IMG/VR virus record: IMGVR_UViG_2737471860_000010
Location: 1 to 17,563 of that record
Strand: one strand, 5' to 3'
From: a virus
Lineage: Duplodnaviria; Heunggongvirae; Uroviricota; Caudoviricetes
DNA length: 17,563 bases
Program-made: the position numbers and the translations under genes
Shown here: positions 1,405-17,563 of the stretch, piece after piece
Numbering within the stretch: position 1 is the stretch's first letter
How the letters are laid out: every line of letters starts with the position of its first letter
The notes under the pieces: generated by a model
What the model was told of the DNA's origin: nothing
Seen by the model: the letters and a program-made list of their open reading frames with translations, nothing else
The model's database searches: none

Positions 1405-1500
1405 TTGAGTATTAACCTCTCGCACAAAGATAACCGTACGATTATCTTTACAAACCAAAACAAACCATAACAAGGCGCGATAAGCGCACCAACGCAAGAG
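1389..1500. promoter_or_regulatory. Lysogeny-switch region between C and the cox-like gene, with repeated GATAAC motifs
   Basis: TTGACA at 1389-1394 followed at once by AAGATAACC (1394-1402). A second AAGATAACC at 1426-1434 forms a 24-bp near-palindrome (1426-1449) with TTATCTTT. Tandem CAAACCAAAA/CAAACCATAA at 1451-1470. GGATAAC at 1492-1498 lies in the RBS region of the cox-like gene. Confidence 0.5.
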
Positions 1501-1508
1501 GATAACAA

Positions 1509-2036: not shown

Positions 2037-2117
2037 GCAACATCAATAGCGTCGACGCATTCTTTGCACGCCCGAAAGAACAGCGAGATGCATGGTTACT
2101 GTAGCTGGGGCTTTGAA

Positions 2118-2525: not shown

Positions 2526-2704
2526 TCAGGAAAAATATATTTGCTTGCCTGAGGATATTTTTTTAGCGTGAGTTTACGCACTTCGCGCATAAGCTTACGA
2601 ATGGTATTTGATGGTTCTCCTTTATTCGGAGGATTAACCGGCGCTTTCTCTAATACAGAAATTGCCGCATTTAGCGCATCAATAACCTTTTCATCATAGG
2701 ACAT
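2522..2704 (-). CDS. Small hypothetical protein (60 aa), antisense to the early operon
   Basis: ATG (rc 'cat' at 2702-2704) preceded by a strong SD (AAGGAATAAAAT-ATG on the minus strand). Stop overlaps the stop of the convergent 2118..2525 gene by 2 nt. No recognisable motif. Confidence 0.4.
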   Translation of the reverse strand: MSYDEKVIDALNAAISVLEKAPVNPPNKGEPSNTIRKLMREVRKLTLKKYPQASKYIFPD

Positions 2705-2846
2705 ATTTTATTCCTTTGTGGTTAGTAAAACACGCGCCATTCACAGCCCCTTCAAGACTGCAGGCGGTGGAAAAATACCACAAAACCATGCGCCGGGCAT
2801 GGCTAAAACCCGGCACAAATTCGCAACAACAGCGGGATATTTTTGT

Positions 2847-3194
2847 ATGAAGCAACAGCACAATTCTTCACAGCAGCGCTTCCGCAGCAATGCAGAACGC
2901 CACGCTAACCGTTTCTCCACCAGTGCTGCCAGCACAAAACGCTACAGCCTGCAGGAAACACACGCCACACCTGACGGGTATCTGGTTAAACAAACAGGTA
3001 AACACACCTGGCTGATTAATGATGCCGGAATTGTCATACACAGAGGCGCACGCAACCCGATTACCGGAAACACCTGTTATTACCTGACTCGCGGTGATGA
3101 CCAGTTCGGACAGGATTTCACATTACACGAAGCATTGCGCACGGTTGATCGCTTAATTGCAGGTCGTAGTTTTCAACATCCATGGGGGAATTAA
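2847..3194 (+). CDS. Hypothetical early protein (115 aa; start uncertain)
   Basis: ORF track 2718..3194 opens with GTG. In-frame ATGs at 2799 and 2847; neither has a clear SD. No recognisable motif. Confidence 0.4.
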   Translation: MKQQHNSSQQRFRSNAERHANRFSTSAASTKRYSLQETHATPDGYLVKQTGKHTWLINDAGIVIHRGARNPITGNTCYYLTRGDDQFGQDFTLHEALRTVDRLIAGRSFQHPWGN

Positions 3195-3197
3195 TCC

Positions 3198-3452
3198 ATG
3201 ACAACAACGACAAAAGATATGGTAGAGATAGCCTCGGCCTACACTCTTATCATACACCGACTCATAGATAATAATGCCCGTGATGCATTAAATACGGTGA
3301 AACCTTTATCGGAAGCAAAAAGCGATATTATCAGCGGATTAAAGTCACTACAGGAATGCGCACGCTATGCAGGTGATCACGCCGCATACATGGCCATTAA
3401 CGATGCAATTGAGCGCATTGAATCAGGTAAATCATTAAGAGCTTTTGTTTAA
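3198..3452 (+). CDS. Hypothetical early protein (84 aa)
   Basis: ATG 3198 preceded by a GGGGGAA SD-like run; compact spacing with flanking genes. Confidence 0.55.
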   Translation: MTTTTKDMVEIASAYTLIIHRLIDNNARDALNTVKPLSEAKSDIISGLKSLQECARYAGDHAAYMAINDAIERIESGKSLRAFV

Positions 3453-3472
3453 GTATTTTCCGGGGAAATACA

Positions 3473-3715
3473 ATGGACAAAGAATATAAAGTTCTCATTA
3501 ATAAAGCCCTTGAACGCTTTAATTTTCGCCTGAGTATGTCAGGAGTTGCCGCCGAACATGCAGCCAGAGACTCACTGACCAGGGCAATCCGCAGCCTGTA
3601 TGACACGGCTTTTTACGCTGACGATTTAGATGCACTCAATGAGCTGGCTGAGCTTGTTCGTGATGCTGAATGTGGAGTGCATATCAAACCATACGTACTT
3701 GGGAGCGCCGCATGA
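3473..3715 (+). CDS. Hypothetical early protein (80 aa)
   Basis: ATG 3473 preceded by a GGGGAAA SD-like run. Its stop overlaps the next ATG in an ATGA arrangement. Confidence 0.55.
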   Translation: MDKEYKVLINKALERFNFRLSMSGVAAEHAARDSLTRAIRSLYDTAFYADDLDALNELAELVRDAECGVHIKPYVLGSAA

Positions 3716-3837
3716 ATATATTTATTTCCTGGCTGATTCTTATTATTTCCGTGCTCTGCGCGATTGGCATCGTAAGAATTATTGATTCCGTAAAAGATAT
3801 CGAATCATTATTTACTGGCGAAAAACGCCGTAAATAA
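3712..3837 (+). CDS. Small hydrophobic peptide (41 aa), single predicted TM helix
   Basis: Not in the ORF track (under 60 aa). ATG 3712 overlaps the stop of the upstream gene (ATGA). Translation read from sequence: MNIFISWLILIISVLCAIGIVRIIDSVKDIESLFTGEKRRK, a hydrophobic core with a charged tail. Confidence 0.4.
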   Translation: MNIFISWLILIISVLCAIGIVRIIDSVKDIESLFTGEKRRK

Positions 3838-3917
3838 AACGCCAGATTAAACAGGAAAACCAGCAAACAATCCGCACCCGCGGAGGAATTCACTCATCTT
3901 GAAAACGGAGAAAAACA

Positions 3918-4196
3918 ATGTGCAGCAATGAAAAAATCAGCGAAATGTTTACCAGCAAGGAAGTTATCACAGCCACACAAAAAGCGCTGGCAGAACTGAT
4001 TAATGCAAGAAAGAAAGTGCTATCGGAAATGGACTACGATAACAGCCCATCATTTTTTGTCAGCCAGACGTTGCAAATAGAAAACATGCTCATGACGTCA
4101 GCAAACAACATCATCGGCGCACTCCATGCGAAAACCCTCCGCCTTGAGCGCGAACTGGCAGAACTCCGGGCACAGTCAGGTCGCTTTTCAGCATAA
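3918..4196 (+). CDS. Hypothetical early protein (92 aa)
   Basis: ATG 3918 preceded by ACGGAGAAAAACA. Product looks helical; no recognisable motif. Confidence 0.55.
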   Translation: MCSNEKISEMFTSKEVITATQKALAELINARKKVLSEMDYDNSPSFFVSQTLQIENMLMTSANNIIGALHAKTLRLERELAELRAQSGRFSA

Positions 4197-4209
4197 AGGG
4201 GGCGGGACG

Positions 4210-4461
4210 ATGCACAACATATTCACTGCCACAAGGCGAACCATGCTGACGCATTTCACCGATGCCGTGGGCCGCGAATTCATGGTGGAAAGTTATTTGA
4301 TCACAACAACCACGCCGTGCCCGTCAGACGCTGATTATCTCTACATCCATCTGACTGACGGCACACAAATCACAGCAGTCGCAAATACCGTACGCGAAGT
4401 GATGACCATCCGGGGAGCATGGAAATCAGAAAGGCACGGCTATGGAGAACTGCAACCATGA
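4210..4461 (+). CDS. Hypothetical early protein (83 aa)
   Basis: ORF track 4126..4461. Start set at the internal ATG 4210, preceded by AAAGGGGGCGGGACG. Confidence 0.5.
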   Translation: MHNIFTATRRTMLTHFTDAVGREFMVESYLITTTTPCPSDADYLYIHLTDGTQITAVANTVREVMTIRGAWKSERHGYGELQP

Positions 4462-4670
4462 TCAGCAAGTACACCACCAACGCACGCAAACCCGGAAAAG
4501 ATGCACGCCACCACATCGCTGTACTCCGCAATCTGCTGATGGAGGAAATCGACGACTTCACGGCAACGCTGAGCGGTCCTGGCGCACCAGTAACACCGGG
4601 TGAGATCCACCGCGAGCTTAAACGCCGTATTGAAAACGCCATTGATTACACCCTGAACCCGACCGAATAA
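4458..4670 (+). CDS. Hypothetical early protein (70 aa)
   Basis: ORF track 4419..4670. Start set at ATG 4458, which overlaps the upstream stop (ATGA) and follows GGAGAA. Confidence 0.5.
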   Translation: MISKYTTNARKPGKDARHHIAVLRNLLMEEIDDFTATLSGPGAPVTPGEIHRELKRRIENAIDYTLNPTE

Positions 4671-4696
4671 CCGGCACAGGCACGGAGGTTATCACG

Positions 4697-5251
4697 ATGA
4701 TACTTCAACCAATGGGGATACCAGGCAAAGCCCCTGCGCACGTGAAACCATGGACACGGCAGGAAGACGAGATGCTTACCTCGCTTTATCAGGAAAACAG
4801 CACATACCAGATGGCTGAACGAATTCAACGCACCCGCAGCGCAGTTATGCACAGAATTCGTGTTTTACGTGATCGTGGATTAATTGGTCGCAAGAGAAAG
4901 ACGCTGAGCAGAGAAGAAATCAATTTTCTCATCAGAAACCGTCACACCAGAACAGCGCAGGAAATGGCAGTCATGGTGGGATGTACCCGTCGCACAGTAC
5001 AGGAACACCTGAGTAAACGTGGTTACAGACTGCAGAAATGCGGAGATCTGCACCACCTGACCAGATACAGCGATCGCCTGGTGGAACTGGTAACAGAACT
5101 ACGTGATGAACAGTGTATGACATTCGCCGCGATAGCAAAACACATCAATCACACACTGCAAATAAAAGCGACCACTAACACAGCATATCTTCTTTACAGT
5201 CGCCGCCGCACTGCCGACGACATTGTGCTGTACGAACTGCTACCGGACTGA
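4697..5251 (+). CDS. Putative DNA-binding protein with repeated HTH-like segments (184 aa)
   Basis: ATG 4697 preceded by GGAGG. Three helix-turn-helix-like segments (…STYQMAERIQRTRSAVMHRIRVL…, …TAQEMAVMVGCTRRTVQEHL…, …MTFAAIAKHINHTLQIK…). The last ~18 nt of the gene lie inside direct-repeat copy 1. Confidence 0.7.
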   Translation: MILQPMGIPGKAPAHVKPWTRQEDEMLTSLYQENSTYQMAERIQRTRSAVMHRIRVLRDRGLIGRKRKTLSREEINFLIRNRHTRTAQEMAVMVGCTRRTVQEHLSKRGYRLQKCGDLHHLTRYSDRLVELVTELRDEQCMTFAAIAKHINHTLQIKATTNTAYLLYSRRRTADDIVLYELLPD

Positions 5252-5281
5252 GTAATCGCCATGCACACACAAAAACCGCTT
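5234..5281. repeat. Direct repeat copy 1 (~48 bp) upstream of the dam cassette
   Basis: GAACTGCTACCGGACTGAGTAATCGCCATGCACACACAAAAACCGCTT. First 42 nt are identical to copy 2; the remainder matches after a 2-nt difference in the A-run. Confidence 0.9.
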
Positions 5282-5328
5282 TCATGGGATTTGTTGACAC
5301 ACGAAACCTGTAACAAAGAGGCCGCGTT

Positions 5329-6348
5329 ATGAGCAAAGAACTGTTATCCGGCACACCGCTGAAATGGGTGGGCGGGAAAAGCCGCATCATGAACACACTG
5401 AAGGCGCATCTGCCAGAAGCGGACTGCCTGGTTGAGCCGTTCGTGGGTGGCGCATCGGTATTCATGAACACCAGTTACAGCCGATACATCCTGGGTGATT
5501 CCAATGGTGCGCTGATTAATTTCTGTCGGGCAGCACGGGACAACACTGACTGTCTGATCAACGAAGCAAAAGACCTGTTCCTGGAACACAATAACAGGAC
5601 TGACTATCTCGCTATCCGTAACACCTTTAATGCAGAGAATCATGCATTCCTGAGCACGGGAATAAGCGACCGTCGCGAATTACGGCTGGCCGCCATGTTT
5701 TTATACCTCAACCGGCACTGCTTTAATGGCCTGTACCGGGTGAATGAAAAAGGGGATTTTAATGTCCCATTCGGTGGCTACCGGGCTCCCTACTTCCCTG
5801 AACGGGAAATCCGCGCATTTGCAGACAAGGCAAACAGCACCAGAACACTGCTTGTTCATGGCGATTTTCAGAAAACGCTGAACACTGCCAGTCACCTGTT
5901 CAGCATAGGTAGTACGCTTTGCGTGTACTGCGATCCCCCTTACCTGTCATTCAGTGGCCGGGACAATTTCACCGCCTACGAAAAACCCTTCACGAAGGAC
6001 GAACACGTTCGCCTGAGAGCAGCGCTTGACCGTCTTTCACAGGAAACAGGTGGAATGACCAGCATAACCATTTCCGGCTCCGACACACCGGAAGCACGGC
6101 GCATTTATCAGGGCTACCGGATGAACCGCATCCAGGCACCGCGAAGCGTTGGCGCAAAAACCCGAAAACCAGCACCGGAGGTTATCGCCACCCTGAGACA
6201 GTGCGACGCCTGTGGTCGCCATGGCGGCGGCTACTGTCCGGACTGCGGCACGGTGACGGGAGATACAACTTACAGCGCGATGTTTACCTCTTCCACCGCA
6301 GAACAACCGCTGATGCCGTACTCCGTGAACTGCTACCGGACTGAGTAA
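5329..6348 (+). CDS. dam: DNA adenine methyltransferase, Dam family (339 aa) with a C-terminal Cys-rich extension
   Basis: ATG 5329 preceded by AAAGAGG. Strong resemblance to E. coli Dam as recalled: PLKWVGGK, CLVEPFVGGASVF (AdoMet motif), FLYLNRHCFNGLYRVN, DFNVPFGGY, and catalytic DPPY (…VYCDPPYLSF…). C-terminal tail contains CDACGRHGGGYCPDCG. Confidence 0.85.
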   Translation: MSKELLSGTPLKWVGGKSRIMNTLKAHLPEADCLVEPFVGGASVFMNTSYSRYILGDSNGALINFCRAARDNTDCLINEAKDLFLEHNNRTDYLAIRNTFNAENHAFLSTGISDRRELRLAAMFLYLNRHCFNGLYRVNEKGDFNVPFGGYRAPYFPEREIRAFADKANSTRTLLVHGDFQKTLNTASHLFSIGSTLCVYCDPPYLSFSGRDNFTAYEKPFTKDEHVRLRAALDRLSQETGGMTSITISGSDTPEARRIYQGYRMNRIQAPRSVGAKTRKPAPEVIATLRQCDACGRHGGGYCPDCGTVTGDTTYSAMFTSSTAEQPLMPYSVNCYRTE

Positions 6349-6376
6349 TCGCCATGCACACACAAAAAAACCGCTT
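6327..6376. repeat. Direct repeat copy 2 (~50 bp) at the 3' end of dam
   Basis: GAACTGCTACCGGACTGAGTAATCGCCATGCACACACAAAAAAACCGCTT. Same sequence as copy 1 with A7 instead of A5. Confidence 0.9.
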
Positions 6377-6463
6377 GCCATGCCGTAATCAGTCGGGTTA
6401 CATTCCCGCTGCACCTTATAAAACGGGTGCCGGGTTTCGCAGCCTGCTGACTACATACGCGCA

Positions 6464-6484
6464 CAACCGCGCCAGCGGTTTTTT
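6464..6484 (+). terminator. Candidate intrinsic terminator (short GC stem plus T7 run)
   Basis: AACCGC-GCCA-GCGGTT followed by TTTTTTT. The stem is only 4 GC plus 2 AT pairs, so it would be weak. Confidence 0.4.
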
Positions 6485-6664
6485 TGTGCGTACTGCATTG
6501 CCACGTCTTTTTCGCATCAGAATTATGGCGGGGCGTACGGGGCCGACTTCGGTCGGGCCGGGATCGTATGTAGCCGGTACTGCGAACCTCGTACGTCTCG
6601 CCACCCACAGTTTCGCAGCTCTGGATGGTGAGTTTTTAAAACTTACTACATACGAGGCCACACC

Positions 6665-6892
6665 ATGGCAAACCGCAAACAACAGCGCGCCCGCGCTGAG
6701 CGCCTTCACATCCGCACCGAAATCAACCGCAGACTTTTCCGCGCATCACGCGTCGCGCAAATCATGCACATCAATATGCTGCATGAGCGCACTCACGCCC
6801 TGTCAAACCGTTACTGTGCCGCTGTTTTCAGCTACCTGGCGGATGATCTCGCGGAACTGCAGAACCTTATCAACCAGCAACACCACCACTAA
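6665..6892 (+). CDS. Small basic hypothetical protein (75 aa)
   Basis: ATG 6665 preceded by ACGAGG. Ends just before the RBS of the next gene. Coding status is uncertain because it lies in a GC-rich, ORF-dense region with overlapping frames. Confidence 0.35.
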   Translation: MANRKQQRARAERLHIRTEINRRLFRASRVAQIMHINMLHERTHALSNRYCAAVFSYLADDLAELQNLINQQHHH

Positions 6893-6960
6893 ACAACATC
6901 CTGAAGCCATCCCGCACCCGTACGCGGGAGGCTTCCGCACGTCTGTTACCGGAGGTTCAC

Positions 6961-7374
6961 ATGAAGAACGTTAAGGAACTTTCAGATATTCAGGATTTTT
7001 TTAACTGGATGTGGTCGGTGGATCCACACCTCGCCTCCCGCCTCAATGACTGGCATGACTATTACCGCCGCGCCTGTAAACAGGCAGCCAGCAGTATCAC
7101 CACATCAGGTGATTTCTCCTTCACCGTTGATGACCGTTACCGTGTTGACGTCAGAGACCTGAATCACAGCCTGAATCTGGGCCTGTTCCACATCAACGGG
7201 CACGACCACAGCGTAATCAGTTGGTCATCGTCAGAAATGGCGCTCGTACTGGACATGACAACCCACAGCGTGGCAGTGAAAGGGATTAAAACGGCAGAAG
7301 GCTTTATTGACGAATACCGGCGCCTTCTTGTGCTGTACCGTGCCGCATTTCAACGGGCAACTGCCGGGGAGTGA
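6961..7374 (+). CDS. Hypothetical protein immediately upstream of replication gene A (137 aa)
   Basis: ATG 6961 preceded by GGAGG. Stop at 7372-7374, 5 nt before the A start. Confidence 0.65.
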   Translation: MKNVKELSDIQDFFNWMWSVDPHLASRLNDWHDYYRRACKQAASSITTSGDFSFTVDDRYRVDVRDLNHSLNLGLFHINGHDHSVISWSSSEMALVLDMTTHSVAVKGIKTAEGFIDEYRRLLVLYRAAFQRATAGE

Positions 7375-7379
7375 GCGCC

Positions 7380-9908
7380 ATGAACACCAACCGCGAATGG
7401 GCCTGGTCATGGAACGCTCCACTGCCCGTTATCGACCCGGAAACCTTCGGCAGAGCGTTACCACAGAAGCCGACGGCATTACGCAGGGCAATTCAGAGCT
7501 ACATCAACGAAGACATCCGGATTAATGCCCGGCTGGATGAAGAAACCGTCGTCTTCCTGACAAGCACAGAAAAAGGCAGGCAGATTAATTCGCACCTTCA
7601 TCACGACGAAGAGCGGCAGATACGGCTGGAAAAGCTGGCCAGGTACAGACGCGATAACCCACCCACGCTGGTATCCGAGGCCATGGCAGAGCTGCGCGCC
7701 CTTCCGGCCTTTCTCGCCGGACCGTTGATTCGCAGGCTGGCGTTCTTCAGACGCAAACAGGACGATGCCCGTCAGAAAGAACTTAAGAACAACAGCGCAT
7801 ACGCAGCGGATAACTTCGTTCGCCACGGGCTGCGCGCCCGTCTGAAACGCATCAGACAGGTGAATGAACGGTTTGCCACTACAGCATTTAAGGCCACCGC
7901 TGCCCGCGAACGACTGGATGAACTCCTGATACTCCCGCAACTGGAGCGCGACGACATTCAGCGCCTTGCCACCCTGACCGCCACCGCGTTTTCCGCCGCA
8001 CTGGAGCGCGCATTTGATGAGGCCATCAAAAGGACCGGAAAGGGGGATGATGACCTGTACACCTGGCTGCTGACCTACCAGCCGCTGGCACATATGGCGT
8101 TAAAACTGGGTGTCACCCCGCCCTGCTGGCCGTCGCTGGAAATCAGACCCGACCGCCGCACCGCCCCCGACCTGGAACAGGTGCCGGGTGCAGTCATGCG
8201 TCTTTCCTGCGCGAACTGGTGGAACGGTCAGTTAAGACACCTTCGCGACATCTGGCGGGAAGAGCTGTTACGCGCCGCAGGTCTGGTGTCACGTAAGGAG
8301 TCGGTATACATCAGCCATGAAGCGTTACTGGACTGGCGCGAAAAACGCCAGCGCACCCGCGATTTTCTGAAAGCCTGGGATGTCGAGAACGAAGAGGGAG
8401 AGCGGTTCAGCCTTGAGGATATCTACTGGGCCGGACTCGCCAATCCGCGCAACCGTCGCAACGAGATGATGGCCTGCGTCCGGGGAATGGAGCAGGTCGC
8501 CGAAGCGCGCGGCGATGTGGCGTTTTTCGTCACCGTCACCGCCCCTTCCCGTTTTCACAGCGTGAACGATGACGGCAGCCTGAACCCGAAATTCTGCGGG
8601 GCAACGGTACGCGATGCCAGTGATTACCTGGTTTACAGATTTTTCGCTGCCGTCCGCAAGGCCATCAGCAAAGCCGGGCTGGGCTGGTACGGTGTACGCA
8701 CCGTGGAGCCTCACCACGACGGCACACCGCACTGGCACATGCTGGTATTCACCAGTCCGGAAAACGAAGCCCGTATCACTGAAATCATGCGCAACGCCGC
8801 CATCAGGGAGGACCGTGCAGAGCTGGGTGATGATATCTCCCCGCGTTTTAAATGCGAAAAAATCGACCCAGCAAAAGGCACCCCGGCAAGCTATATCGCG
8901 ACCTATATCGGTAAGAACCTGGACGCCAGCGTATTTATGGGGAATGACCCGAAAACCGGCAAACCATACGCAGACAGGGAATCAGGCAAAACAATGGCAG
9001 AAACCGTGGAGAACGCCATCGGCTGGGCGACCCTTCACCGCATCCGCCAGTTCCAGTTCTTCGGTATCCCGCCACGCCAGGTATGGCGCGAACTCCGCCG
9101 TCTTGCCGGGCAGATAGCCCGTAACCCGAAGGCACCACAGCGCCTCGATAATGAAGACATTGACGCCATACTGGCCGCCGCTGATGTGGGATGTTTTGCC
9201 ACCTACATCACCAGGCAGGGTGGTGTACTCATTCCCCGCAACACGTACCTGGTCCGCACCGCATACGAAACCGCCGAAGAGGCCAACGACTACGGCGAAT
9301 TTCCGCAACGTATTTACGGTGTCCGTGCACCGTCACTCGGGGAGCAGTACACCATATGCACCCATCCGGACACCTGGAAACTGGTCAGACGTAAGCCGGA
9401 AGGTGAAGACAGCGCCAGCGAAACTGATTTTGACGTTGAGGGCGACTTTGTCGCCCCTTGGACTCGTGGCAATAACTGTCCCCATGACCAGAATTTAACC
9501 AGTAATGCCACGCCAGAAGGGCAACAGGACAGACGCAGGGAGCAACGACTTACCCTGCCGGAAGGTGATTTAACCGAATGGCTGAGGTCGCTGACACCGG
9601 TACAGAGAAAACAACTCACCCGGCAGTTGAAAAACCCGCCACCTGACACAGAAACCGTGAAAAACGGCGGCATCAGTGCGCCCACTGACGGCGTTCGCGT
9701 GGATGTCGCACTGACAGCAGAGCCACACATCACCGCACAAATCACCTGCGAACTCGATGCACTGGGCGTACAACTGCCTGACGCAGCCATTATTTCCGTG
9801 CGTAACGGGGCCCGTGTTCTCCTGGATGACGGGCGCACCGCGTACTGGAACGACAACACCCGCCGCATTGAGCTCAACCCTGCACAGAAAACGGAGGGGC
9901 CACAATGA
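7380..9908 (+). CDS. A: Rolling-circle replication initiator, P2 gpA family (842 aa)
   Basis: ORF track 7371..9908 opens with GTG; first ATG is 7380, preceded by GGGGAG. HUH-like motif (…TPHWHMLVFT…) and the tandem-tyrosine active-site block (…SYIATYIGKN…) are characteristic of phiX174/P2 A-type initiators. Confidence 0.9.
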   Translation: MNTNREWAWSWNAPLPVIDPETFGRALPQKPTALRRAIQSYINEDIRINARLDEETVVFLTSTEKGRQINSHLHHDEERQIRLEKLARYRRDNPPTLVSEAMAELRALPAFLAGPLIRRLAFFRRKQDDARQKELKNNSAYAADNFVRHGLRARLKRIRQVNERFATTAFKATAARERLDELLILPQLERDDIQRLATLTATAFSAALERAFDEAIKRTGKGDDDLYTWLLTYQPLAHMALKLGVTPPCWPSLEIRPDRRTAPDLEQVPGAVMRLSCANWWNGQLRHLRDIWREELLRAAGLVSRKESVYISHEALLDWREKRQRTRDFLKAWDVENEEGERFSLEDIYWAGLANPRNRRNEMMACVRGMEQVAEARGDVAFFVTVTAPSRFHSVNDDGSLNPKFCGATVRDASDYLVYRFFAAVRKAISKAGLGWYGVRTVEPHHDGTPHWHMLVFTSPENEARITEIMRNAAIREDRAELGDDISPRFKCEKIDPAKGTPASYIATYIGKNLDASVFMGNDPKTGKPYADRESGKTMAETVENAIGWATLHRIRQFQFFGIPPRQVWRELRRLAGQIARNPKAPQRLDNEDIDAILAAADVGCFATYITRQGGVLIPRNTYLVRTAYETAEEANDYGEFPQRIYGVRAPSLGEQYTICTHPDTWKLVRRKPEGEDSASETDFDVEGDFVAPWTRGNNCPHDQNLTSNATPEGQQDRRREQRLTLPEGDLTEWLRSLTPVQRKQLTRQLKNPPPDTETVKNGGISAPTDGVRVDVALTAEPHITAQITCELDALGVQLPDAAIISVRNGARVLLDDGRTAYWNDNTRRIELNPAQKTEGPQ

Positions 9909-10336
9909 CCCGTTTTTACTGCACCATGCAGCGCCAGCGCTTTGACAACATGATGCGCCAGCGCACGCCATTACTGACTCTGAACAACATTGCCACGAGA
10001 CCACAACCCGGCGATGAACTGGAAATCACAGTGGTCAATCCTGACCGCACCACGAAAACCACCATTACAGATATACTCAACAGACGGCCGGGAAATGAAC
10101 ATAAGAGCTGGATTGTCTCAGTTCGTACCCGCCGTTCGCCGGAGGAGTCGGAGCCGTGCACACCTGCAGGGAAAATCATGCAGAAGTACCACGAAGAACA
10201 GGCACACAAACACAACGCAGCACTGGCCAGAACACTGAATGTCGTCAATCGCAAGGCCGCCCTGGCGGGAATGGTCTTTTCACCACAACGCAATTCATTC
10301 GCCAGGCCGACACAACACCGGAGAACACCACAATGA
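9905..10336 (+). CDS. Hypothetical protein translationally coupled to A (143 aa)
   Basis: ATG 9905 overlaps the A stop (ATGA) and follows GGAGGGG. Basic product with no recognisable motif. Confidence 0.6.
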   Translation: MTRFYCTMQRQRFDNMMRQRTPLLTLNNIATRPQPGDELEITVVNPDRTTKTTITDILNRRPGNEHKSWIVSVRTRRSPEESEPCTPAGKIMQKYHEEQAHKHNAALARTLNVVNRKAALAGMVFSPQRNSFARPTQHRRTPQ

Positions 10337-10824
10337 ACGAAGTCGATTATCAGGCGTTGCGTGACACAGCAACGGCAACAGAAAAAGTGGCAACACCAAA
10401 GAAACTTCTGGCATTTCGTATTAAGGCCACACCATCGGTGGTACTGGCTCTCCTGGACGAACGGGACAGGCTCAGGGATTACGTTAACCTGTACGAAGGA
10501 GAAAAGTGGCATTACTTTCAGCTCGCCGGGTCCGAGGCTGAACGTGCAGATAAAGCAGAAAAAGAACTGGGAAAAGCGAAGCTGCGCATCGCTGAGCTGG
10601 AAGAAATCGCGACTGACTATGCGCTGAAATTCCAGAAAGCCCAGGATGCACTAAAGCATGCAGTCTTACTGCACAAAAACACATCAAGGAGCTTTACGGT
10701 TTTCCTGCCAGAAATCAGTGAATACTTCATCGACGATGTGTTTCAGCCTTTACGCTATGAACGGGATATTGAAAAAGCCGTTATCCTGGCAGGTGGTGTG
10801 GTCAAATGGCATAACAAGAAATAA
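10333..10824 (+). CDS. Hypothetical coiled-coil protein (163 aa)
   Basis: ORF track 10156..10824. Start set at ATG 10333, overlapping the upstream stop (ATGA). Central heptad-like region (…AERADKAEKELGKAKLRIAELEEIATDYALKFQKAQDALK…). Confidence 0.6.
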   Translation: MNEVDYQALRDTATATEKVATPKKLLAFRIKATPSVVLALLDERDRLRDYVNLYEGEKWHYFQLAGSEAERADKAEKELGKAKLRIAELEEIATDYALKFQKAQDALKHAVLLHKNTSRSFTVFLPEISEYFIDDVFQPLRYERDIEKAVILAGGVVKWHNKK

Positions 10825-10831
10825 TTAAGAG

Positions 10832-10876
10832 AACCGGGAACAGGTGCGCAAATTCTTTGTGCGCCTGTTCCCGGTT
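10832..10876. terminator. Long hairpin between convergent gene ends (candidate bidirectional terminator)
   Basis: AACCGGGAACAGGTGCGCA / loop AATTCTT / TGCGCCTGTTCCCGGTT. About 19 bp of stem with two G-U pairs, sitting between the stop at 10824 (+) and the stop at 10957 (-). Confidence 0.6.
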
Positions 10877-10956
10877 GGACAAGCAAAGCGCGTCAGAAAA
10901 TGGATGAGCAGAACATGCACAATAAAAGGCATTTACACAGAATCCTAAACAGGCTC

Positions 10957-11583
10957 TCAACGTACGGTTCTTATCCTCCGGATATCCATTCTGACAATCT
11001 GGTCACGAGGGATCCATGTCGCCAGATTGCCAGACTGCTTATCCATTACGTTATCATATTTCATCCATTCACGACTGTTATTATCTCTGTAATGTGTGAC
11101 ATAAAGAGTAATGTCACCATTGTTACCAAGCGTCAGTGGCCCATTTGGTAGCTGTTCAAAATCAGCCGATAAAAGAGAACGTAATACCGAGCCATCTTTC
11201 AGAAATACTAAAACCTCTGTTACAGGAAAATCAGTCTGTTCAAACATCGACTGCCACGCAGAACTACTACTGTCTGACCATGAGATATCATGCTTTCTGA
11301 GGAAGCGGTACATCCATGCTCGTGCATATTTACGCCAGTATGCGCCACTCGCCACAGCATATAAAACCGTTGGAAGTGTAGCCGTCCAGTCATCAACACC
11401 TGCCCATACAAATGCATGGTAAACCATAGCGGAAAACATGCCAAAAATCAGGGTGGAAAACGTTATCTCTGTAGGTTTATGACTATCGTTGATCCCAACA
11501 GTTGATATGAAATAGCCAATATATCCACAGGAAAGCGTGACAAGTGCCTCCCATGGTAAATTCAAAAGAGAAGAGTCCAACAT
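10957..11583 (-). CDS. Membrane protein with 2-3 N-terminal TM helices and a ~110 aa soluble C-terminal domain (208 aa); candidate effector of a cargo system
   Basis: ATG (rc 'cat' 11581-11583) preceded by GAGGGT, 21 nt after the stop of the zinc-finger gene. Hydrophobic segments WEALVTLSCGYIGYFISTVGI and ITFSTLIFGMFSAMVYHAFVWAGV, plus a weaker third. Followed by a long hairpin. Confidence 0.7.
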   Translation of the reverse strand: MLDSSLLNLPWEALVTLSCGYIGYFISTVGINDSHKPTEITFSTLIFGMFSAMVYHAFVWAGVDDWTATLPTVLYAVASGAYWRKYARAWMYRFLRKHDISWSDSSSSAWQSMFEQTDFPVTEVLVFLKDGSVLRSLLSADFEQLPNGPLTLGNNGDITLYVTHYRDNNSREWMKYDNVMDKQSGNLATWIPRDQIVRMDIRRIRTVR

Positions 11584-11604
11584 CAGTTACCCTCATCACC
11601 ACAC

Positions 11605-11862
11605 TCATCCAGCCTGCAGCAATTCCAGCGCCATCTGCTTTTCTTCCGGGCGCATGCGTTCTATCAGTAATTTCAGTACACCGTTATCCAGACCGCTTGG
11701 GACAAGCGTATGAGAATAGGTCAGATTCATCACCCAGGTATGCCCACAGTCAAGCCGGGTACAGCGGTAATATACATCGGCAAAATGGTCCGTTTTCCAT
11801 ACGGTTTTTTCAATAATGGCCACCGAACCACAGCAATGACACCGTGCCTTTTGTCTGCGCAT
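11605..11862 (-). CDS. Ogr/Delta-type zinc-finger protein (85 aa)
   Basis: ORF track 11605..11928. Start set at the internal ATG (rc 'cat' 11860-11862) with a strong SD (GGGAGGTGGAAC-ATG). C-x2-C-x22-C-x4-C spacing (CHCC…YYRCTRLDCGHTW) matches P2 Ogr as recalled. An alternative ATG at 11926-11928 overlaps the Q stop. Confidence 0.65.
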   Translation of the reverse strand: MRRQKARCHCCGSVAIIEKTVWKTDHFADVYYRCTRLDCGHTWVMNLTYSHTLVPSGLDNGVLKLLIERMRPEEKQMALELLQAG

Positions 11863-11927
11863 GTTCCACCTCCCGACAGATTGCTTCGGTCGTGGTGATT
11901 TTAACCGCTCTCGTCCTGTACAGCACA

Positions 11928-12977
11928 TTATCTGCCCTGCTCTTCAAAATTAAGGTCAAACACCACGCGCCCGAGGCGGAGAATATCACGGTCACTGTTG
12001 ATACTTTCCATTATCAGCCGTCGCATGGGGATCACTTCATCACGGTAGTACGCTTCGCGTGATTTGAGCGGATCACCAAGTCCGGCAGTATTGGCTGGAA
12101 TAATGCCAGCCAGCCCTGGCGGGAAACGGTGCGCAACAAGTTGGTCCTGCGCACTGATATTCTTGATATTCAGAAATTCATCTTTGGTACCGGTATCACC
12201 AACAGGAATTACCTTCACCCCCTCAGCATTCCCTCCGGGTATATTAATAAACATGGATTTAAAATTTCCTGCGCCTTTTGACTGTTCAATTTTTTTACGA
12301 AACTCATCCTCGAGCTCAGGCGACATATCAGGATCCGTGGTATATAAAATGTAACCGAGGTGTGCGCCGTTTTTAAAATATTTACGGCGGAACCGGGTGG
12401 CATCCACATTAAGCATGGCGGACTCCATACCATGGATATAGTCCGGAACCCCATATACCTGTTGTTGCGGATCGTAGATGGCAACAAAGACCACTTCATC
12501 AGGTCCATATACCGTGTCATCCATAGCCATCTGCACGATCACCGTTCCACCGTTACTGTTGCGGCGCAGATACAGGGAGGGTAGCGTGACAAGCCTGACC
12601 ACTTTCCCGAAACCATTGCGCACTTTCAGCAGTCCGACATCACCGAATATCAGCAGGTTGGTGACAGCAGCTGTCATTGCCGCGTGACTCATGCCGCCAC
12701 CACTTTTAAATCCCTGCATAATCATATTAACCCGCGCACGTAACACTGCCCCATGATAGGGGGCAATATTGGCCAGTACGGCAAGGTCCATCCGTTCAAC
12801 AGGCGGCTGGTAATAGCCGTTATAACCGTCCCAGAATGTGCCGTTATAACTTCCCCAGGCAGCAACTGGCTCGGGATCACCAAATTCAATCAGGCTCATT
12901 TTTTTGCCTGCTGACTGTCCTTGCGTATTCACTGCGACATCACCTTGCTGCCGGCACTGTTTATTCTTTTTAGTCAT
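11928..12977 (-). CDS. Q: Portal protein, P2 gpQ family (349 aa)
   Basis: ORF track 11928..12983 opens with TTG; first ATG is 12975-12977 (MTKKNKQ…), 8 nt inside the 3' end of P. Length and position (downstream of P, divergent from O-N-M) fit P2 Q. Confidence 0.85.
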   Translation of the reverse strand: MTKKNKQCRQQGDVAVNTQGQSAGKKMSLIEFGDPEPVAAWGSYNGTFWDGYNGYYQPPVERMDLAVLANIAPYHGAVLRARVNMIMQGFKSGGGMSHAAMTAAVTNLLIFGDVGLLKVRNGFGKVVRLVTLPSLYLRRNSNGGTVIVQMAMDDTVYGPDEVVFVAIYDPQQQVYGVPDYIHGMESAMLNVDATRFRRKYFKNGAHLGYILYTTDPDMSPELEDEFRKKIEQSKGAGNFKSMFINIPGGNAEGVKVIPVGDTGTKDEFLNIKNISAQDQLVAHRFPPGLAGIIPANTAGLGDPLKSREAYYRDEVIPMRRLIMESINSDRDILRLGRVVFDLNFEEQGR

Positions 12978-14748
12978 CAGCAAAAACCCACGTTGATTTG
13001 CGTTTATTTTTGTAATTCAGCGGCTCATTACTGAGCGCATGGGCAATAGCGAAAAACACATCCGCATGGCCGGTTTCCTCACTACGTTCTGCCGTAAAGG
13101 TAACTTTGTTGCCACTGCCTGTGGTTTCCTGGCGAATGGCCATGAATGAAGCCGGAATATCCTTTGCCTCTTCATCCCATTCGATGCGCCGGGCATCCAC
13201 CACATCCAGCATTTTCATCACCAGACGATTTTTACTCTCAACGCTGTAATGAATGGCCACGGTTTCACGGCGGGCAAATCCCTGAACAAGTTCATAAACG
13301 CCATACCCGAGCCCGGTGACATCTATCCCGATAAAGGTCATGTTATAGCGGGATTTAATGGCGCGGATACGTTCAGCCATATACTGAAATGACATGCTGC
13401 GCCAGTGATGTTTTTCCAGTACACGAAAGCGTTCCCCTTCGACCAGTGGCGGTGCCACCACCACAAACGTGGCATTATCCCCCCCTCTCGCCGGGTCAAA
13501 ACCGCCCCAGACCTCACGATTACCGAACGGCGCCGGTTCATCAGGATTGAAGTCCTCCCATATTCGGGGGTCAACACCACAACGCTCCAGATCTTCAAAA
13601 CGGAAAATGCTCTCCTTGTCGTCCACGAACTGGCACATAAACAACATCCTGAACGCGGTCTCACTGTATCGTTCGCGCAGTTCGTTGATATCGGCAAGGT
13701 TAAATCCACCGGCAATGGCATCTTCCAGCGTCACCACGTAACGCCACTGCCCGTCAGGACATTCGCGCCCACCGTCACGCAGCTCATCAAAGGACGGGAA
13801 TTCAACCTGTTTACGCTTCGGATCTCCGCGTCGCCATTCATCACCGGACCAGAACGCGTATCCCTGGTGTGTTTTACCGGACGGTGTAGAAAAATAGGTC
13901 AGACGCCACCGCGAGTGTGTGGCCATACCGGAAGCAACCGTATTAAGACGTTCAAAGCCGGGGATCCACAGATATTCATCAATGTACACGTGACCACTGT
14001 TTGACTGTGCGGTGTTACTGTTCGTTGCCAGAAAATACAGCTCAGCCATATTACTTAACCTGACAGGATTACCCTTAATTGCGATCCCAAATTCTTGCTG
14101 TGCAATTTTAACAATATAGGTACGAAAGACTTCCGCCTGACGTTTTGAAGCGGACAGAAATATCTGAGTGTCGCCAGTTAATACAGCATCTTCGAAAGCT
14201 TCAAAGGCAAAATAAAAGGTTGCACCAATCTGACGGGATTTAAGCAAATTACGTACACGGCGAATTTTGTTTTTCCGAAGGTGTAACTGATAAGCGAACA
14301 GTTTTTTAGTAAACGGTTCAAAACTCTCTGCCGTCAGTCCGGAAATATCATTAGCCTTACGTCGGCGTTCTTTTTTACCGCTTTCACTGTTACCACGGGA
14401 TACCGGCGAACTGTCTGCCATCTCAACAGACATATGTTCAATTTCTGCCATTCGTTCTGTATGTCTGTGTCTGGCAGACATCAGTTTCACATGGTGCCCG
14501 ATAAGACGATCAAGTTCATCCCGCTCTTCCTGACTTTTATGTTCACGCTCTGTCAGCGTCATCACACGACGGGCGATCACCTCCTCCACACCTTCGGTAC
14601 TGAGCTGCGTATACCACTCATATTTTGTTGCCCAGTAATAAACAATACGCGGACTGTTAAGCCCCAGCTTTTTTTGTATTTCTTTCGGCGTATACCGTTT
14701 CAGATACAGCGCACGGGCAGCAGCTATCACTTCATCAGAATAAGCCAT
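12970..14748 (-). CDS. P: Terminase large (ATPase) subunit, P2 gpP family (592 aa)
   Basis: ORF track 12970..14892. Start set at the internal ATG (rc 'cat' 14746-14748, MAYSDEVIAAARALYLKRYTPKEIQ…) preceded by ACGGAGGAG. Length matches P2 P; divergent from O. Confidence 0.88.
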   Translation of the reverse strand: MAYSDEVIAAARALYLKRYTPKEIQKKLGLNSPRIVYYWATKYEWYTQLSTEGVEEVIARRVMTLTEREHKSQEERDELDRLIGHHVKLMSARHRHTERMAEIEHMSVEMADSSPVSRGNSESGKKERRRKANDISGLTAESFEPFTKKLFAYQLHLRKNKIRRVRNLLKSRQIGATFYFAFEAFEDAVLTGDTQIFLSASKRQAEVFRTYIVKIAQQEFGIAIKGNPVRLSNMAELYFLATNSNTAQSNSGHVYIDEYLWIPGFERLNTVASGMATHSRWRLTYFSTPSGKTHQGYAFWSGDEWRRGDPKRKQVEFPSFDELRDGGRECPDGQWRYVVTLEDAIAGGFNLADINELRERYSETAFRMLFMCQFVDDKESIFRFEDLERCGVDPRIWEDFNPDEPAPFGNREVWGGFDPARGGDNATFVVVAPPLVEGERFRVLEKHHWRSMSFQYMAERIRAIKSRYNMTFIGIDVTGLGYGVYELVQGFARRETVAIHYSVESKNRLVMKMLDVVDARRIEWDEEAKDIPASFMAIRQETTGSGNKVTFTAERSEETGHADVFFAIAHALSNEPLNYKNKRKSTWVFADD

Positions 14749-14824
14749 AACTCCTCCGTATAAATAAACTTCGACCATTTTCGAAAAAGGTCTTTCTGAA
14801 GACGAACAGCAGAATTCAGTTATT

Positions 14825-14848
14825 TTCGGATATACCGGTTTATCCGAA
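14825..14848. promoter_or_regulatory. Near-perfect 24-bp palindrome in the divergent P/O promoter region
   Basis: TTCGGATATACCGGTTTATCCGAA, 22 of 24 positions symmetric. About 100 bp upstream of the O start and ~77 bp upstream of the P start. Confidence 0.5.
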
Positions 14849-14933
14849 TACAGCAGAAATAAACAGGATGACGCCGGCACAGGATTATTCATCTAATACC
14901 CGCAGTACGGTTTTATCAGTGAATAAATTTCCT

Positions 14934-15806
14934 ATGACGAAACAGAAAACAGACTGGGTTGTGGTCGCCACCTCGGGAAAGGCTGTTGACGGTCGCGATA
15001 TTGAAGAAAAATGGCTGACAGATGCCGCAGAGGTCTATAACGCGGAAGAATACACTGCCATGCTCTGGCCATATCATGCTGACCCTGGCTGGCGTGCCTT
15101 CACCAACAACTACGGCACAATTGAGGAACTGAAAACCGAAAAATTCGGCGACAGGATCCAGCTCAAAGCCCGCATTGTGCCGAACCGTTTCCTCCTGGAA
15201 GCCAACAAAGCCGGACAGAAGCTGTTCACATCCGTGGAAATCAGCGATGACTACATGGGCACCGGCAAATTCTGGCTCAGTGGTATCGCTGTCACCGACA
15301 CACCGGCCAGCATTAACACCACCCGCCTGCACTTTTCACAGGGTAACGCTGTCCGCATGGGGAATGCAGAAACGCTGAATTTCACGCTGCAGCCTGATGA
15401 TGAGCAGGCCAAACGGGGCTTTTTCTCCCGCTTTTTCACTTCGTCACCTCACAAACAGGAAGAGGCACCAATGAACCAGGAACAATTTAACCAGATGATG
15501 AGCGCCATTCAGCAGACCGGAGATCGCCTGGACAGACTGGAAAATCAGTTCAGTCAACTGTCAGCGCAGGAGAAATCAGAACCTGACGCAGAAAAGACAA
15601 CGAATGCACAGGATAACACGCAGAAGACTGAAGGCACTGAAGCCACCTTCACCCAGTCAGAAGAGCAACTGCAGAAAATGTTTTCCACCATCGTGAATAT
15701 TGCACAGAAGGTGGAAAATCTTGAAACCGCATTCAGCGAACTCAGCCGTGAAGCCACCACCATTCCTGGAAGAGCGCCGGAAACCAACACGTTTAAACTG
15801 ATTTAA
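14934..15806 (+). CDS. O: Capsid scaffolding protein, P2 gpO family (290 aa)
   Basis: ORF track 14868..15806. Start set at ATG 14934 (MTKQKTDWVVVATSGKAVDGR…), which aligns with the P2 O N-terminus (…GDTCDGR…) as recalled. Block …AGQKLFTSVEISDDYMGTGKFWLSGIAVTDTPAS… is characteristic. Confidence 0.85.
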   Translation: MTKQKTDWVVVATSGKAVDGRDIEEKWLTDAAEVYNAEEYTAMLWPYHADPGWRAFTNNYGTIEELKTEKFGDRIQLKARIVPNRFLLEANKAGQKLFTSVEISDDYMGTGKFWLSGIAVTDTPASINTTRLHFSQGNAVRMGNAETLNFTLQPDDEQAKRGFFSRFFTSSPHKQEEAPMNQEQFNQMMSAIQQTGDRLDRLENQFSQLSAQEKSEPDAEKTTNAQDNTQKTEGTEATFTQSEEQLQKMFSTIVNIAQKVENLETAFSELSREATTIPGRAPETNTFKLI

Positions 15807-15816
15807 GGATAAAACG

Positions 15817-16845
15817 ATGCTGACACCAAAAGCCACCGAACTGATCCGACAGAATATCGACGCCGTTCATCGCAATTTCCGCAATTGCCAGACCTCTGAC
15901 GGGAAATCATTCTCATTAACTGAACCGCTTTCAACAGCCATTCGCCTGGCACTGATGGAAAACCTGGCTTTCCTCAGTCTGATCACCATGATGGATGTAC
16001 CACATCCGAAAGGTCAGGTTATCAATATTGGCGACTCTGTACTGCGTACCGGGCGCGTGAAAGACGGACGTTTCACCAAAGGGTCAACGTTTGACGGTAA
16101 TACCTTCGAACTGGTCGAAACCGATTCCTGCAACATCATTCCATGGGACACACTGGCCATCTGGGGCAATGTGGGAAGCCAGCAGGAATTTTTCAATCTG
16201 ATGAACAACGCCGCGCTTCACAACTTTGCCGAAGATATTTTACGTATCGGCTTTAACGGGGCCAGCGTGGCCGAAAACTCAGATCCGGAAACCAATAAGC
16301 TCGGTCAGGACGTCAATATTGGCTGGCATCAGATCGCCAGAAACTGGGGGGAAGAAGAAGGACGTACCTCAAAAATTCTGACAGACCCGGTCACCATTGG
16401 CGAGGGCGGTGATTTTATTGGTCTGGATGCTGCAGCATCTGACATTATCCGAAGTGCCATTCCTGCGCAATGGCAGGATAACCCAAACCTTGTTGTCCTG
16501 GTTGGCGCTGACCTGCTCGCTGCGGAGGAGGTCCGCCTCTACAACAAAGAGGATCGCCCGTCAGAGCAGGTTGCCGCACAGCAACTGAGCAAAAATATTG
16601 CCGGTCGCCGCGCCTTCTGTCCGCCATTCATGCCCGGAAAACGTCTTGTGGTCACCACACTGCAGAACCTGCAGGTGCTGACGTTGCAGGGCTCGCGTCG
16701 TCGTCGCGCAGAAGACGTCAGCGATCGTAAACAGTTTGAGAACAGCTACTGGCGTTATGAAGGTTACGCCCTTGGGAATCCGGAGCTGTATGCAGCGATC
16801 GACGAATCAGCCGTCACAATCGTAAATGCAAAAGGGAAAGACTGA
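15817..16845 (+). CDS. N: Major capsid protein, P2 gpN family (342 aa)
   Basis: ATG 15817 preceded by AAGGA. Blocks …LRIGFNGASVAENSDPETNKLGQDVNIGWHQ…, …EEGRTS…, …GEGGDFIGLDAAASD… resemble P2 N as recalled. Follows O directly. Confidence 0.9.
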   Translation: MLTPKATELIRQNIDAVHRNFRNCQTSDGKSFSLTEPLSTAIRLALMENLAFLSLITMMDVPHPKGQVINIGDSVLRTGRVKDGRFTKGSTFDGNTFELVETDSCNIIPWDTLAIWGNVGSQQEFFNLMNNAALHNFAEDILRIGFNGASVAENSDPETNKLGQDVNIGWHQIARNWGEEEGRTSKILTDPVTIGEGGDFIGLDAAASDIIRSAIPAQWQDNPNLVVLVGADLLAAEEVRLYNKEDRPSEQVAAQQLSKNIAGRRAFCPPFMPGKRLVVTTLQNLQVLTLQGSRRRRAEDVSDRKQFENSYWRYEGYALGNPELYAAIDESAVTIVNAKGKD

Positions 16846-16855
16846 GGGCTGAACC

Positions 16856-17563
16856 ATGACACCGTTTCAGCGTCAGCGTGAAAGACAACTTGCCGGACAA
16901 AAGGCTGCCGGACTGCAGACACAACAGGCAGGTCATGTTATGCACGACAGCCAGCATATCATGCTGCTGGCGCTGGAGCAGGATTTGAAGCGACTGCATG
17001 ACATTGAACGTATTGCTGACAAAGTTGAAATGAAACGCACCGTTCTGCTTCCACGCTGGCTGCCACATGCACAGGCTTACCTGGACAAGGGACGCGTGTA
17101 TCAGAATCCTGTGCTTGTTTATTGCGTGATCTGGCTGTTTGACACCGGTCAGTTTGAACACGCGCTGCAGTGGGCAGATATTGCTATCGCTCAGGGGCAA
17201 CGAATGCCGGAAAGATTCCGGAGCGGACTGCCCACCTTCGTGGCACATTTCATTCTGGAATGGGCTGAACATGAAGCAGAGCGGGGAAACGGATCAGAGC
17301 CTTACTTTTCACAGGTCTTTGACAGGGTACGCCATACCTGGCAGATAAATGAGCGCCTGACGGCAAGATATTACCGGTTTGCCGGGCTTCAGTTACTGAG
17401 AAACGGCAACGATAAACCACTGGCCAGCACCATCAGTGACCAGAACATACTGATAAAAGCGGATGAACTGCTGGCAACGGCAGAAGCGCTGCATCCAAAA
17501 ATTCAGGTAAAAACACACCGTCAGCGTATCGCGATGCGACTGCGGGCGTTACTGGCGGAATAA
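16856..17563 (+). CDS. M: Terminase small / endonuclease subunit, P2 gpM family (235 aa)
   Basis: ATG 16856 preceded by GAGGG. Blocks …LLPRWLPHAQAYLDKG…VIWLFDTGQFEHALQWADIAIAQGQRMPERF… resemble P2 M. The stop codon is the last triplet of the window. Confidence 0.8.
   Translation: MTPFQRQRERQLAGQKAAGLQTQQAGHVMHDSQHIMLLALEQDLKRLHDIERIADKVEMKRTVLLPRWLPHAQAYLDKGRVYQNPVLVYCVIWLFDTGQFEHALQWADIAIAQGQRMPERFRSGLPTFVAHFILEWAEHEAERGNGSEPYFSQVFDRVRHTWQINERLTARYYRFAGLQLLRNGNDKPLASTISDQNILIKADELLATAEALHPKIQVKTHRQRIAMRLRALLAE

Follow-up and report, generated by a model that had tools for sequence, protein, structure and literature searches.

The question raised by the locus described here is where a prophage keeps its cohesive-end site (cos) when the DNA just past its portal gene Q, the place where phage P2 has it, appears to hold none. 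The DNA is a stretch of 17,563 nucleotides (nt) from a tailed-phage genome (Caudoviricetes; IMG/VR virus record IMGVR_UViG_2737471860_000010, positions 1 to 17,563), referred to in its full length as the window. It runs from an integrase gene (4-993, minus strand) through the early genes, a GPA replication protein (7371-9908) and two small genes to a minus-strand block made up of a gene for a 208-amino-acid (aa) protein, an Ogr/Delta gene, Q and the large terminase gene P, and it closes on the plus strand with the genes for scaffold (O), capsid (N) and small terminase (M). As set out below, the window is very probably the left half (int to gpM) of an intact Escherichia coli prophage of the HP1/phiO18P/ESSI-2-type branch of the Peduoviridae, with its cos elsewhere. 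This branch keeps cos between the last tail gene, the homologue of HP1 orf35, and attP/int rather than beside Q, so that in the prophage the site falls at the end opposite int and outside the window. Because the branch keeps cos past the tail genes, its absence beside the portal gene is normal for this prophage.

No P2-type cos beside the portal gene

The features on which the question turns are the following.

11928 to 12977, minus strand: portal gene Q, 349 aa in the calls on identical public contigs (open reading frame, ORF, 11928-12977/12983; its TAA is 11928-11930)
11863 to 11927, minus strand: Q-ogr spacer, 65 nt, without cos; either the leader and promoter of ogr or the 5' end of a 107-aa Ogr
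12970 to 14748, minus strand: large terminase gene P, 592 aa as called, with the Pfam domains Terminase_5, Terminase_6N and Terminase_6C
16856 to 17563, plus strand: small terminase gene M, PF05944 in the gene calls, the final gene of the window
10832 to 10878, no strand: GC-rich hairpin between the convergent early (plus) and Q-ogr (minus) units, seen in the sequence

An earlier, sequence-only reading of this locus started from the premise that the cos of P2 lies just past the 3' end of Q, and the P2 record agrees: cosL occupies 1-19, the end of Q is at 187 and a terminator separates the two, which puts the 19-nt cos 168 bp past the Q stop. That reading saw nothing like the P2/186 cohesive end in 9900-12000, and the searches bear it out. 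The P2 cohesive-end 19-mer GGCGAGGCGGGGAAAGCAC has no match with three or fewer mismatches in the whole 17.5-kb window, the 287-bp joined P2 cos region finds only chance matches there (blastn, word size 7; no longer than 16 nt, with E of at least 0.24), and the most G- or C-rich 19-mer in 9900-12000 reaches 10 of 19. No cos core was found in 11863-11927 or in the adjacent gene ends, which had been named as the places where one might still be located. Also absent from 11863-11927 is a terminator between the Q stop and ogr; a search of this spacer against Rfam found nothing, and its folding is not out of the ordinary (z = -1.0). The P2/186-type placement, with cos within about 200 bp of the Q stop and a terminator between the two, is not what is seen here.

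Position of cos in the branch and its predicted core in this lineage

The portal protein matches Pfam Phage_portal and PHROG 68 (portal, E=2e-111), and the top tblastn matches of portal and terminase are not to P2 but to Yersinia phage vB_YenM_324, Pasteurella phages, HP1/HP2, phiO18P and ESSI-2, at 45-56% identity; for the portal the values are 51.6% with vB_YenM_324, about 56% with HP1/HP2 (HP1, 55.9%) and about 53% with phiO18P. The relatives were compared through proteins and synteny because DNA searches of the phage collection gave nothing, a megablast of 9900-13000 returning no matching phage record and a distant blastn of the L102 cos region (described below) returning no match at all. 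Among 5,426 complete E. coli genomes the Q-ogr region has only 76%-identical relatives, and public contigs of 98.5-99.94% identity to the window (L017-L019; L017 98.5%, L019 99.94%) come from assemblies whose E. coli source is indicated by the flanking serS and dmsA genes and by the source protein names. The lineage is widespread, with 183 public assembly blocks indexed for gpM and 36 for int. The right arm of the lineage encodes HP1_ORF34, Phage_HP1_Orf24 and an orf35-like gene.

The records of named relatives place cos consistently away from Q. In HP1, cosL is at 1-9, attP at 251-694 and int at 698-1711, with Q at 10757-11794 and orf35 ending at 32163 of 32355. The phiO18P record carries an identical 16-nt sequence, CTCATCCGCTCCCGCC, at each end (cosL 1-16, cosR 33970-33985), with int at 609-1661 and the orf35-like baseplate gene ending at 33770. 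The linear ESSI-2 record starts and finishes with the same 15 nt, GCGGGTGCGGTGTAG, as a direct repeat, and these termini have the orf35-like gene on one side and int on the other; the library searched gave no paper on these ends, and the repeat is taken from the record only. In the record of vB_YenM_324, for which no paper was found, the genome stands in prophage order and the ESSI-2 core lies internally, 3' of the orf35-like gene. Cohesive ends have been shown experimentally for the related Vibrio phage PV94, as 5' overhangs of 16 nt (PMC3986222).

The right arm of the window's own lineage was reached through a DUF1353 protein encoded after the tail-fibre assembly gene, which led to protein P0122 and from it to contig L102; the IMG/VR contigs of the same phage (L023, L066, L069) end in the tail-fibre or cargo region. 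The orf35 homologues P0006, P0009 and P0010 were tried as the right arm and rejected, as they come from relatives at 70-75% identity or from contigs with a break upstream. L102 overlaps L017 at 99.8% over 6.7 kb, and L018, L019, L021 and L022 at 99.3-99.4%. Its positions 10570-13582 hold an orf33-like gene of 234 aa, HP1_ORF34 (PF25759) and an orf35-like gene of 579 aa that ends at 13582; beyond it, 737 non-coding bp lead to a hok gene (14319-14465), after which comes serS of the host.

Within this non-coding DNA, 159 bp 3' of the orf35-like gene and some 1 kb inward from attR, lies the 18-nt sequence CTACCCCCTCCAACCCGC (L102 13741-13758), which is the predicted cos core of this E. coli prophage lineage and the first of two new features of this analysis. 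Its window-equivalent position would be about 34,631, some 17.07 kb to the right of the window end. The interval 13700-13800 of L102 reads GACGTAAAGTGTCACGTCACGTAAACCGCG-CTACCCCCTCCAACCCGC-GGGTTTTGTGTTGAAACGCTTTTTCAGTTTT, and the predicted cos segment is composed of ACGTAAA repeats, then CGCG-CTACCCCCTCCAACCCGC-GGG, then TTTTTCAGTTTT. A MAFFT alignment (A1) matches L102 13690-13850 to the end-joined sequences of ESSI-2 and phiO18P and, weakly, to that of HP1; it also takes in STEC316, one IMG/VR relative and the internal site of vB_YenM_324. The features common to the aligned sequences are two to three upstream ACG(T/G)AAA repeats, a C-rich core that starts with CTAC or CTCA and ends with CCCGC, and, some 25 nt 3' of the core, a block reading TTTTT(T)CA(G)TTTT. 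Between L102 and L028 the core is 100% identical and the following 100 nt are 91% identical, while the adjacent orf35 gene is at 67% and the outer flanks are at 51-66%; conservation of the core so far above that of the neighbouring gene suggests selection on the DNA itself. The att core, AAAGCGCCTGCGGGCGCTTT, a 20-nt palindrome that is the serS terminator, is found both on the int side (L159, about 4077-4096, 84 nt past the int stop) and on the serS side (L102, about 14722-14741, by serS), which places the predicted cos inside the prophage.

The repeats 5' of the core occupy the following positions.

L102 13711-13736; L028 18575-18615; L015 3240-3356 (HP1); L155 33900-33969 (phiO18P): ACG(T/G)AAA repeats

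From Haemophilus to E. coli phages, two to four such copies stand immediately 5' of the cos core, and the motif occurs at the equal relative position in 15 relatives. They are plausible candidates for the recognition repeats of the small terminase (gpM).

Several points weigh against this placement of cos or limit its precision. K139, a relative of phiO18P, is reported to be terminally redundant and not to have cohesive ends (PMC3986222), so that end structure may vary within the branch. L102 comes from another assembly than the window-identical contigs, and the linkage between them is the 6.7-kb overlap at 99.3-99.8% identity. The cos assignment in L102 is a prediction from homology and position, end annotation coming from the records of relatives, and the nick sites can be placed only to within a few bases, since the core exceeds that of ESSI-2 by 3 nt.

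Against this evidence, the idea that the window does contain a cos, unrecognised because its sequence has drifted too far and sited perhaps in the Q-ogr spacer or the convergent interval 10825-10956, appears very improbable. In P2, cos lies between gpA and Q (PMC9122126), and these two stretches are all the non-coding DNA of that interval here; the spacer also holds a strongly conserved short motif. Neither stretch, however, resembles any of the four cos regions compared (P2, ESSI-2, phiO18P and L102), an L102-type core is not found in the window in exact or degenerate form, and a clear homologue of the phiO18P and ESSI-2 cos, which is defined by experiment or by the record ends, exists elsewhere in the same phage lineage. 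ESSI-2, phiO18P and HP1, moreover, have an equal Q-proximal layout, and yet their ends map elsewhere. The hairpin at 10832-10878 was weighed as a cos and set aside, since it is a simple inverted repeat that resembles none of the cos regions.

Loss of cos from a rearranged or defective prophage can likewise be given hardly any weight. Some relatives are indeed decayed, the portal and terminase genes of STEC316 being frameshifted pseudogenes, and one copy in GCA_031626895.1 (L020) is broken by a Mu-like element. In the window and in L017-L019, by contrast, every head and packaging gene is full length (Q, P, O, N and M, and with them ogr, are intact in the window), the right arm offers a complete tail module and a conserved cos-like core within intact att repeats, and the genes follow one another just as in phiO18P, ESSI-2 and vB_YenM_324, sequenced phages of the phage database. 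The sequence-only reading had offered three options, a divergent cos, a displaced cos, or a rearranged or defective element. The first two hold as descriptions, as the predicted cos differs from that of P2/186 and lies away from Q; a displacement by some event in this element does not, this being the standard architecture of the HP1/phiO18P/ESSI-2 branch. The third finds no support, since the genes are intact and the same layout occurs in phages with annotated or repeat ends. The reading that remains preferred is an intact prophage with cos past its tail genes.

STEC316 (L002/L016, NZ_CP041431.1), 76% identical to the window, has the frameshifts of its portal and large terminase genes recorded in RefSeq, and its scaffold gene is split into three ORFs; this copy looks decayed, whereas the window copy does not. 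GCA_031626895.1 is a single 5.4-Mb contig with three prophages (L020-L022) that have identical gpM, and in L020 the Mu-like element (homologues of MuA, MuB, Gam and Mor) has taken the place of all DNA upstream of N, which is itself truncated (296 versus 342 aa).

Other observations concern the surroundings of the predicted cos. The insertion site is the interval between serS and dmsA, and int is at the dmsA end of the prophage. A toxin gene of the hok/gef family lies between the predicted cos and attR (L102 14319-14465; L016 5766-5906; L093-L097; L100) and is kept in relatives from E. coli, Yersinia enterocolitica and metagenomes, about 740-830 bp after the orf35-like gene; by sequence, the phage appears to carry a hok/sok-type module beside its cos. 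In the RefSeq record of Escherichia phage ESSI2_ev239 (L156, NC_049392.1), the last ~70 nt are poly-A and the reverse complement of an Illumina/Nextera adapter, CAAGCAGAAGACGGCATACGAGAT...AGATGTGTATAAGAGACAG, joined straight to phage DNA at GCCCCCGCCTGCGG within the cos-homologous region. This terminus is adapter contamination of a reference genome, and the adapter junction may mark a physical DNA end.

The Q-ogr junction and the TAAAAT element

The gene that follows Q had been taken for cargo. This view does not survive the profile searches, in which the zinc-finger protein matches Pfam Ogr_Delta (PF04606) at 44.4 bits, above the cut-off of 26.3, which identifies it as a late-gene activator and hence a core gene; it also matches PHROG 603 (transcriptional regulator, E=6e-31). 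Its translation carries the motif C-X2-C-X22-C-X4-C (CHCC...(22)...CTRLDC), in the spacing of the zinc motif of P2 Ogr. An Ogr-type gene stands right behind Q in phiO18P, ESSI-2, vB_YenM_324, SW3, STEC316, E. albertii, Edwardsiella and dozens of IMG/VR prophages, and in phiO18P the distance from portal stop to regulator start is also 65 bp. Its presence directly behind Q across relatives makes the Q-ogr junction a conserved core feature of the branch. The elements of this junction are listed here.

11605 to 11862, minus strand: Ogr/Delta zinc-finger gene (ogr), 85 aa in the short form, or 107 aa if the start is 11928 (ORF 11605-11928)
11869 to 11873, minus strand: Shine-Dalgarno sequence GGAGG, 6 nt 5' of the ATG at 11862, a direct reading of the sequence
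11898 to 11903, minus strand: TAAAAT hexamer, conserved, proposed -10 element of an ogr promoter, 35 nt 5' of the ATG

The sequence coordinates confirm the spacing and the two possible starts described in the sequence-only reading. The ogr ATG supported by the Shine-Dalgarno sequence is 11862-11860, exactly 65 nt from the Q stop, and translation begun at 11863 runs into stops. The GGAGG region is kept as GGGAGGTGGAA among the E. coli relatives. At the Q end, minus-strand positions 11930 to 11926 read TAATG, in which the TAA closes the portal ORF and the ATG, in frame with ORF 11605-11928, opens the 107-aa form.

Within the spacer, TAAAAT is invariant at 32-38 nt before the ogr ATG in an alignment of eleven enterobacterial lineages (the window, STEC316, L109, L113, L132, L153, Edwardsiella, ev239, vB_YenM_324, ESSI-2 and SW3). 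It matches TATAAT at five of six positions. In Edwardsiella a length difference of 1 nt breaks the long upstream frame but leaves the distance from TAAAAT to the ATG unchanged, and the synonymous third positions within the hexamer (xTA, AAA) are invariant among lineages that are about 45-80% identical and differ at about half of the positions around it; both observations indicate that DNA, and not a peptide, is conserved. Pasteurellaceae relatives have TGATATAnT, which resembles an extended -10 element, at a similar position. This apparently frame-independent element 5' of ogr is the second new feature of the analysis, and it is most likely the -10 element of ogr's own promoter.

The 65 bp next to Q would then be the upstream region of ogr, a gene lying directly behind the P-Q late operon. 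In this arrangement ogr would be read through from P-Q, by which it can be reached because no terminator lies between, and it would in addition have its own promoter, with TAAAAT as the -10 followed by GGAGG and the ATG. Such a combination would parallel P2, whose ogr gene, as Birkeland and colleagues are said to have described in 1991, is transcribed both from a promoter of its own and by read-through from the FETUD late operon upstream of it.

Some results speak against a promoter at this place. Compared with TTGACA at a spacing of 16-19 nt, the best -35 for TAAAAT matches at 4/6 and most at 2-3/6, most lineages have no TG at -15/-14, and a consensus promoter scan made no call at the hexamer. 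In most lineages, furthermore, an ATG or GTG at or just past the Q stop opens an in-frame extension, so that the spacer may be translated instead or as well.

A coding role for the gap, in which a 107-aa Ogr is made by translational coupling at TAATG and TAAAAT encodes a conserved L/V-K-S peptide, is possible, though we regard it as doubtful. The frame is open to a start at or near the Q stop in the window, STEC-type E. coli/E. albertii, L113, L132, L153, ev239, ESSI-2, vB_YenM_324 and SW3; RefSeq lists long forms of about 106 aa in vB_YenM_324, ESSI-2 and SW3, and the PHROG 603 alignment spans residues 5-106 of the long form. Set against this are the retention of TAAAAT at equal distance from the ATG in Edwardsiella despite the broken frame, and the invariant third positions, which point to selection at the level of DNA. 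Between the window and E. albertii, moreover, the extension is about 50% identical and the Ogr core about 90%, the internal ATG is preceded by a strong GGAGG, and gene callers chose the short form for the identical contigs and for phiO18P. The coding and the promoter readings of the spacer are mutually compatible, and a scheme combining them would have two Ogr isoforms, one of 85 aa from the TAAAAT promoter and one of 107 aa made only from late P-Q read-through, coupled at TAATG, TGATG or ATGA. The co-occurrence of overlap, open frame and frame-independent hexamer is compatible with two isoforms and no demonstration of them, and we consider this scheme improbable; if true, it would amount to a built-in early-versus-late activator switch. 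TAAAAT as the -10 element of ogr remains the reading we prefer.

In Edwardsiella (L006, L007, L128, L129) the spacer contains a small ORF (MVKKWVKF...) that is 1 nt out of frame and overlaps the ogr start. This ORF resembles the N-terminal extension of the other lineages and represents either a degenerate form of it or a leader peptide in its own right.

The targets of the activator were also sought. The TGT-N12-ACA dyad that P2-type late promoters carry near -55 is absent from the divergent region between P and O, and its two matches in the window are both intragenic and below the number expected by chance. This same late-promoter region does contain, at 14825-14848, a perfect dyad TTCGGATA-N8-TATCCGAA, which has no second occurrence across the late region and is a possible candidate for the binding site of the lineage's Ogr-like activator.

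Accessory genes and comparison with named phages

Between ogr and the convergent early unit lies one further gene.

10957 to 11583, minus strand: 208-aa gene, PHROG 12870 (unknown function), no Pfam or PADLOC match

With a GC content of 43%, compared with about 50% in its neighbours, and hydrophobic N-terminal segments in its product, this gene is precisely missing from L022, which is otherwise 97-99.9% identical, and also from L021 (91% identical from ogr onward). It is the sole true accessory ('moron') gene of the interval and is variable; by analogy, it would be a candidate exclusion or defence gene, and PADLOC found nothing among the accessory genes. The long hairpin at 10832-10878 is probably a bidirectional terminator; it is kept in L022, and its only matches are to generic hairpin (miRNA) models, with scores far under the threshold. 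A second variable hotspot extends from the tail-fibre module to orf33. In L069 (8990-10700) some 1.7 kb of AT-rich DNA come after the DUF1353 gene; they contain several short hairpins with recurring terminal stems of the form 'ccc(a/g)cag..tgtggg/tgcggg', and low-GC cargo genes come next, unlike L102, in which the orf33-like gene directly follows DUF1353.

Among named phages, phiO18P (Bielevirus; NC_009542) is one of the closest to the prophage. The left half of that genome runs from int through early and replication genes to an ogr-like gene, portal and terminase in the opposite orientation, and its right half from scaffold, capsid and small terminase through the tail genes to the orf35-like baseplate gene, cos and att/int; its annotated 16-nt cohesive end aligns with the L102 core. 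It differs in the core itself (CTCATCCGCTCCCGCC compared with CTACCCCCTCCAACCCGC in this lineage), in the portal (about 53% identity), in a Q-ogr spacer without TAAAAT, and in its Aeromonas host and integration at a tRNA-Leu-like site. HP1 (Hpunavirus; NC_001697) shares the placement of cos by attP/int after orf35 and far from Q, the ACGGAAA/ACGTAAA repeats 5' of a C-rich core, and homologues in this lineage of Orf24, Orf34 and orf35, but it has no annotated Ogr-like gene after Q (366 bp and a terminator stand there), a shorter annotated end (cosL 1-9), an AT-rich genome and a cos region of weak similarity. Cronobacter phage ESSI-2 (Seongnamvirus) and Yersinia phage vB_YenM_324 have the Ogr-like gene behind Q with its start overlapping the Q stop, and TAAAAT 32 nt 5' of the internal ogr ATG; they differ in the portal (45-52%), in the core CTACACCGCACCCGC and in being without the hok module.

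With P2 and 186 (Peduovirus/Eganvirus), the prophage shares the family-level head module (Q and P divergent from O, N and M), GPA and an Ogr/Delta-type activator. The P2 ogr gene, however, lies at the other end of the late region, by attP, so that the two positions are effectively swapped here, with ogr by Q and cos by att; the window also lacks a P2-type cos and the TGT-N12-ACA dyad in the P/O intergenic region. Common to both types is a hotspot for accessory genes between gpA and gpQ (PMC9122126).

The layout itself is already known, as the GenBank annotation of HP1 and phiO18P documents it as the ordinary architecture of the branch. It has a bearing on annotation, P2 being the usual template and yet a large branch (HP1, phiO18P, ESSI-2, vB_YenM_324 and many E. 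coli, Edwardsiella and Yersinia prophages) having ogr by Q and cos by att; in such elements a cos missing beside the portal gene is no sign of decay. The P2 defence hotspot between gpA and gpQ has been described as cos-adjacent (PMC9122126), which the corresponding interval is not in this prophage, though an accessory gene still occupies it. The predicted cos core, finally, offers a target for end-mapping, and for finding satellites that may hijack this phage group.

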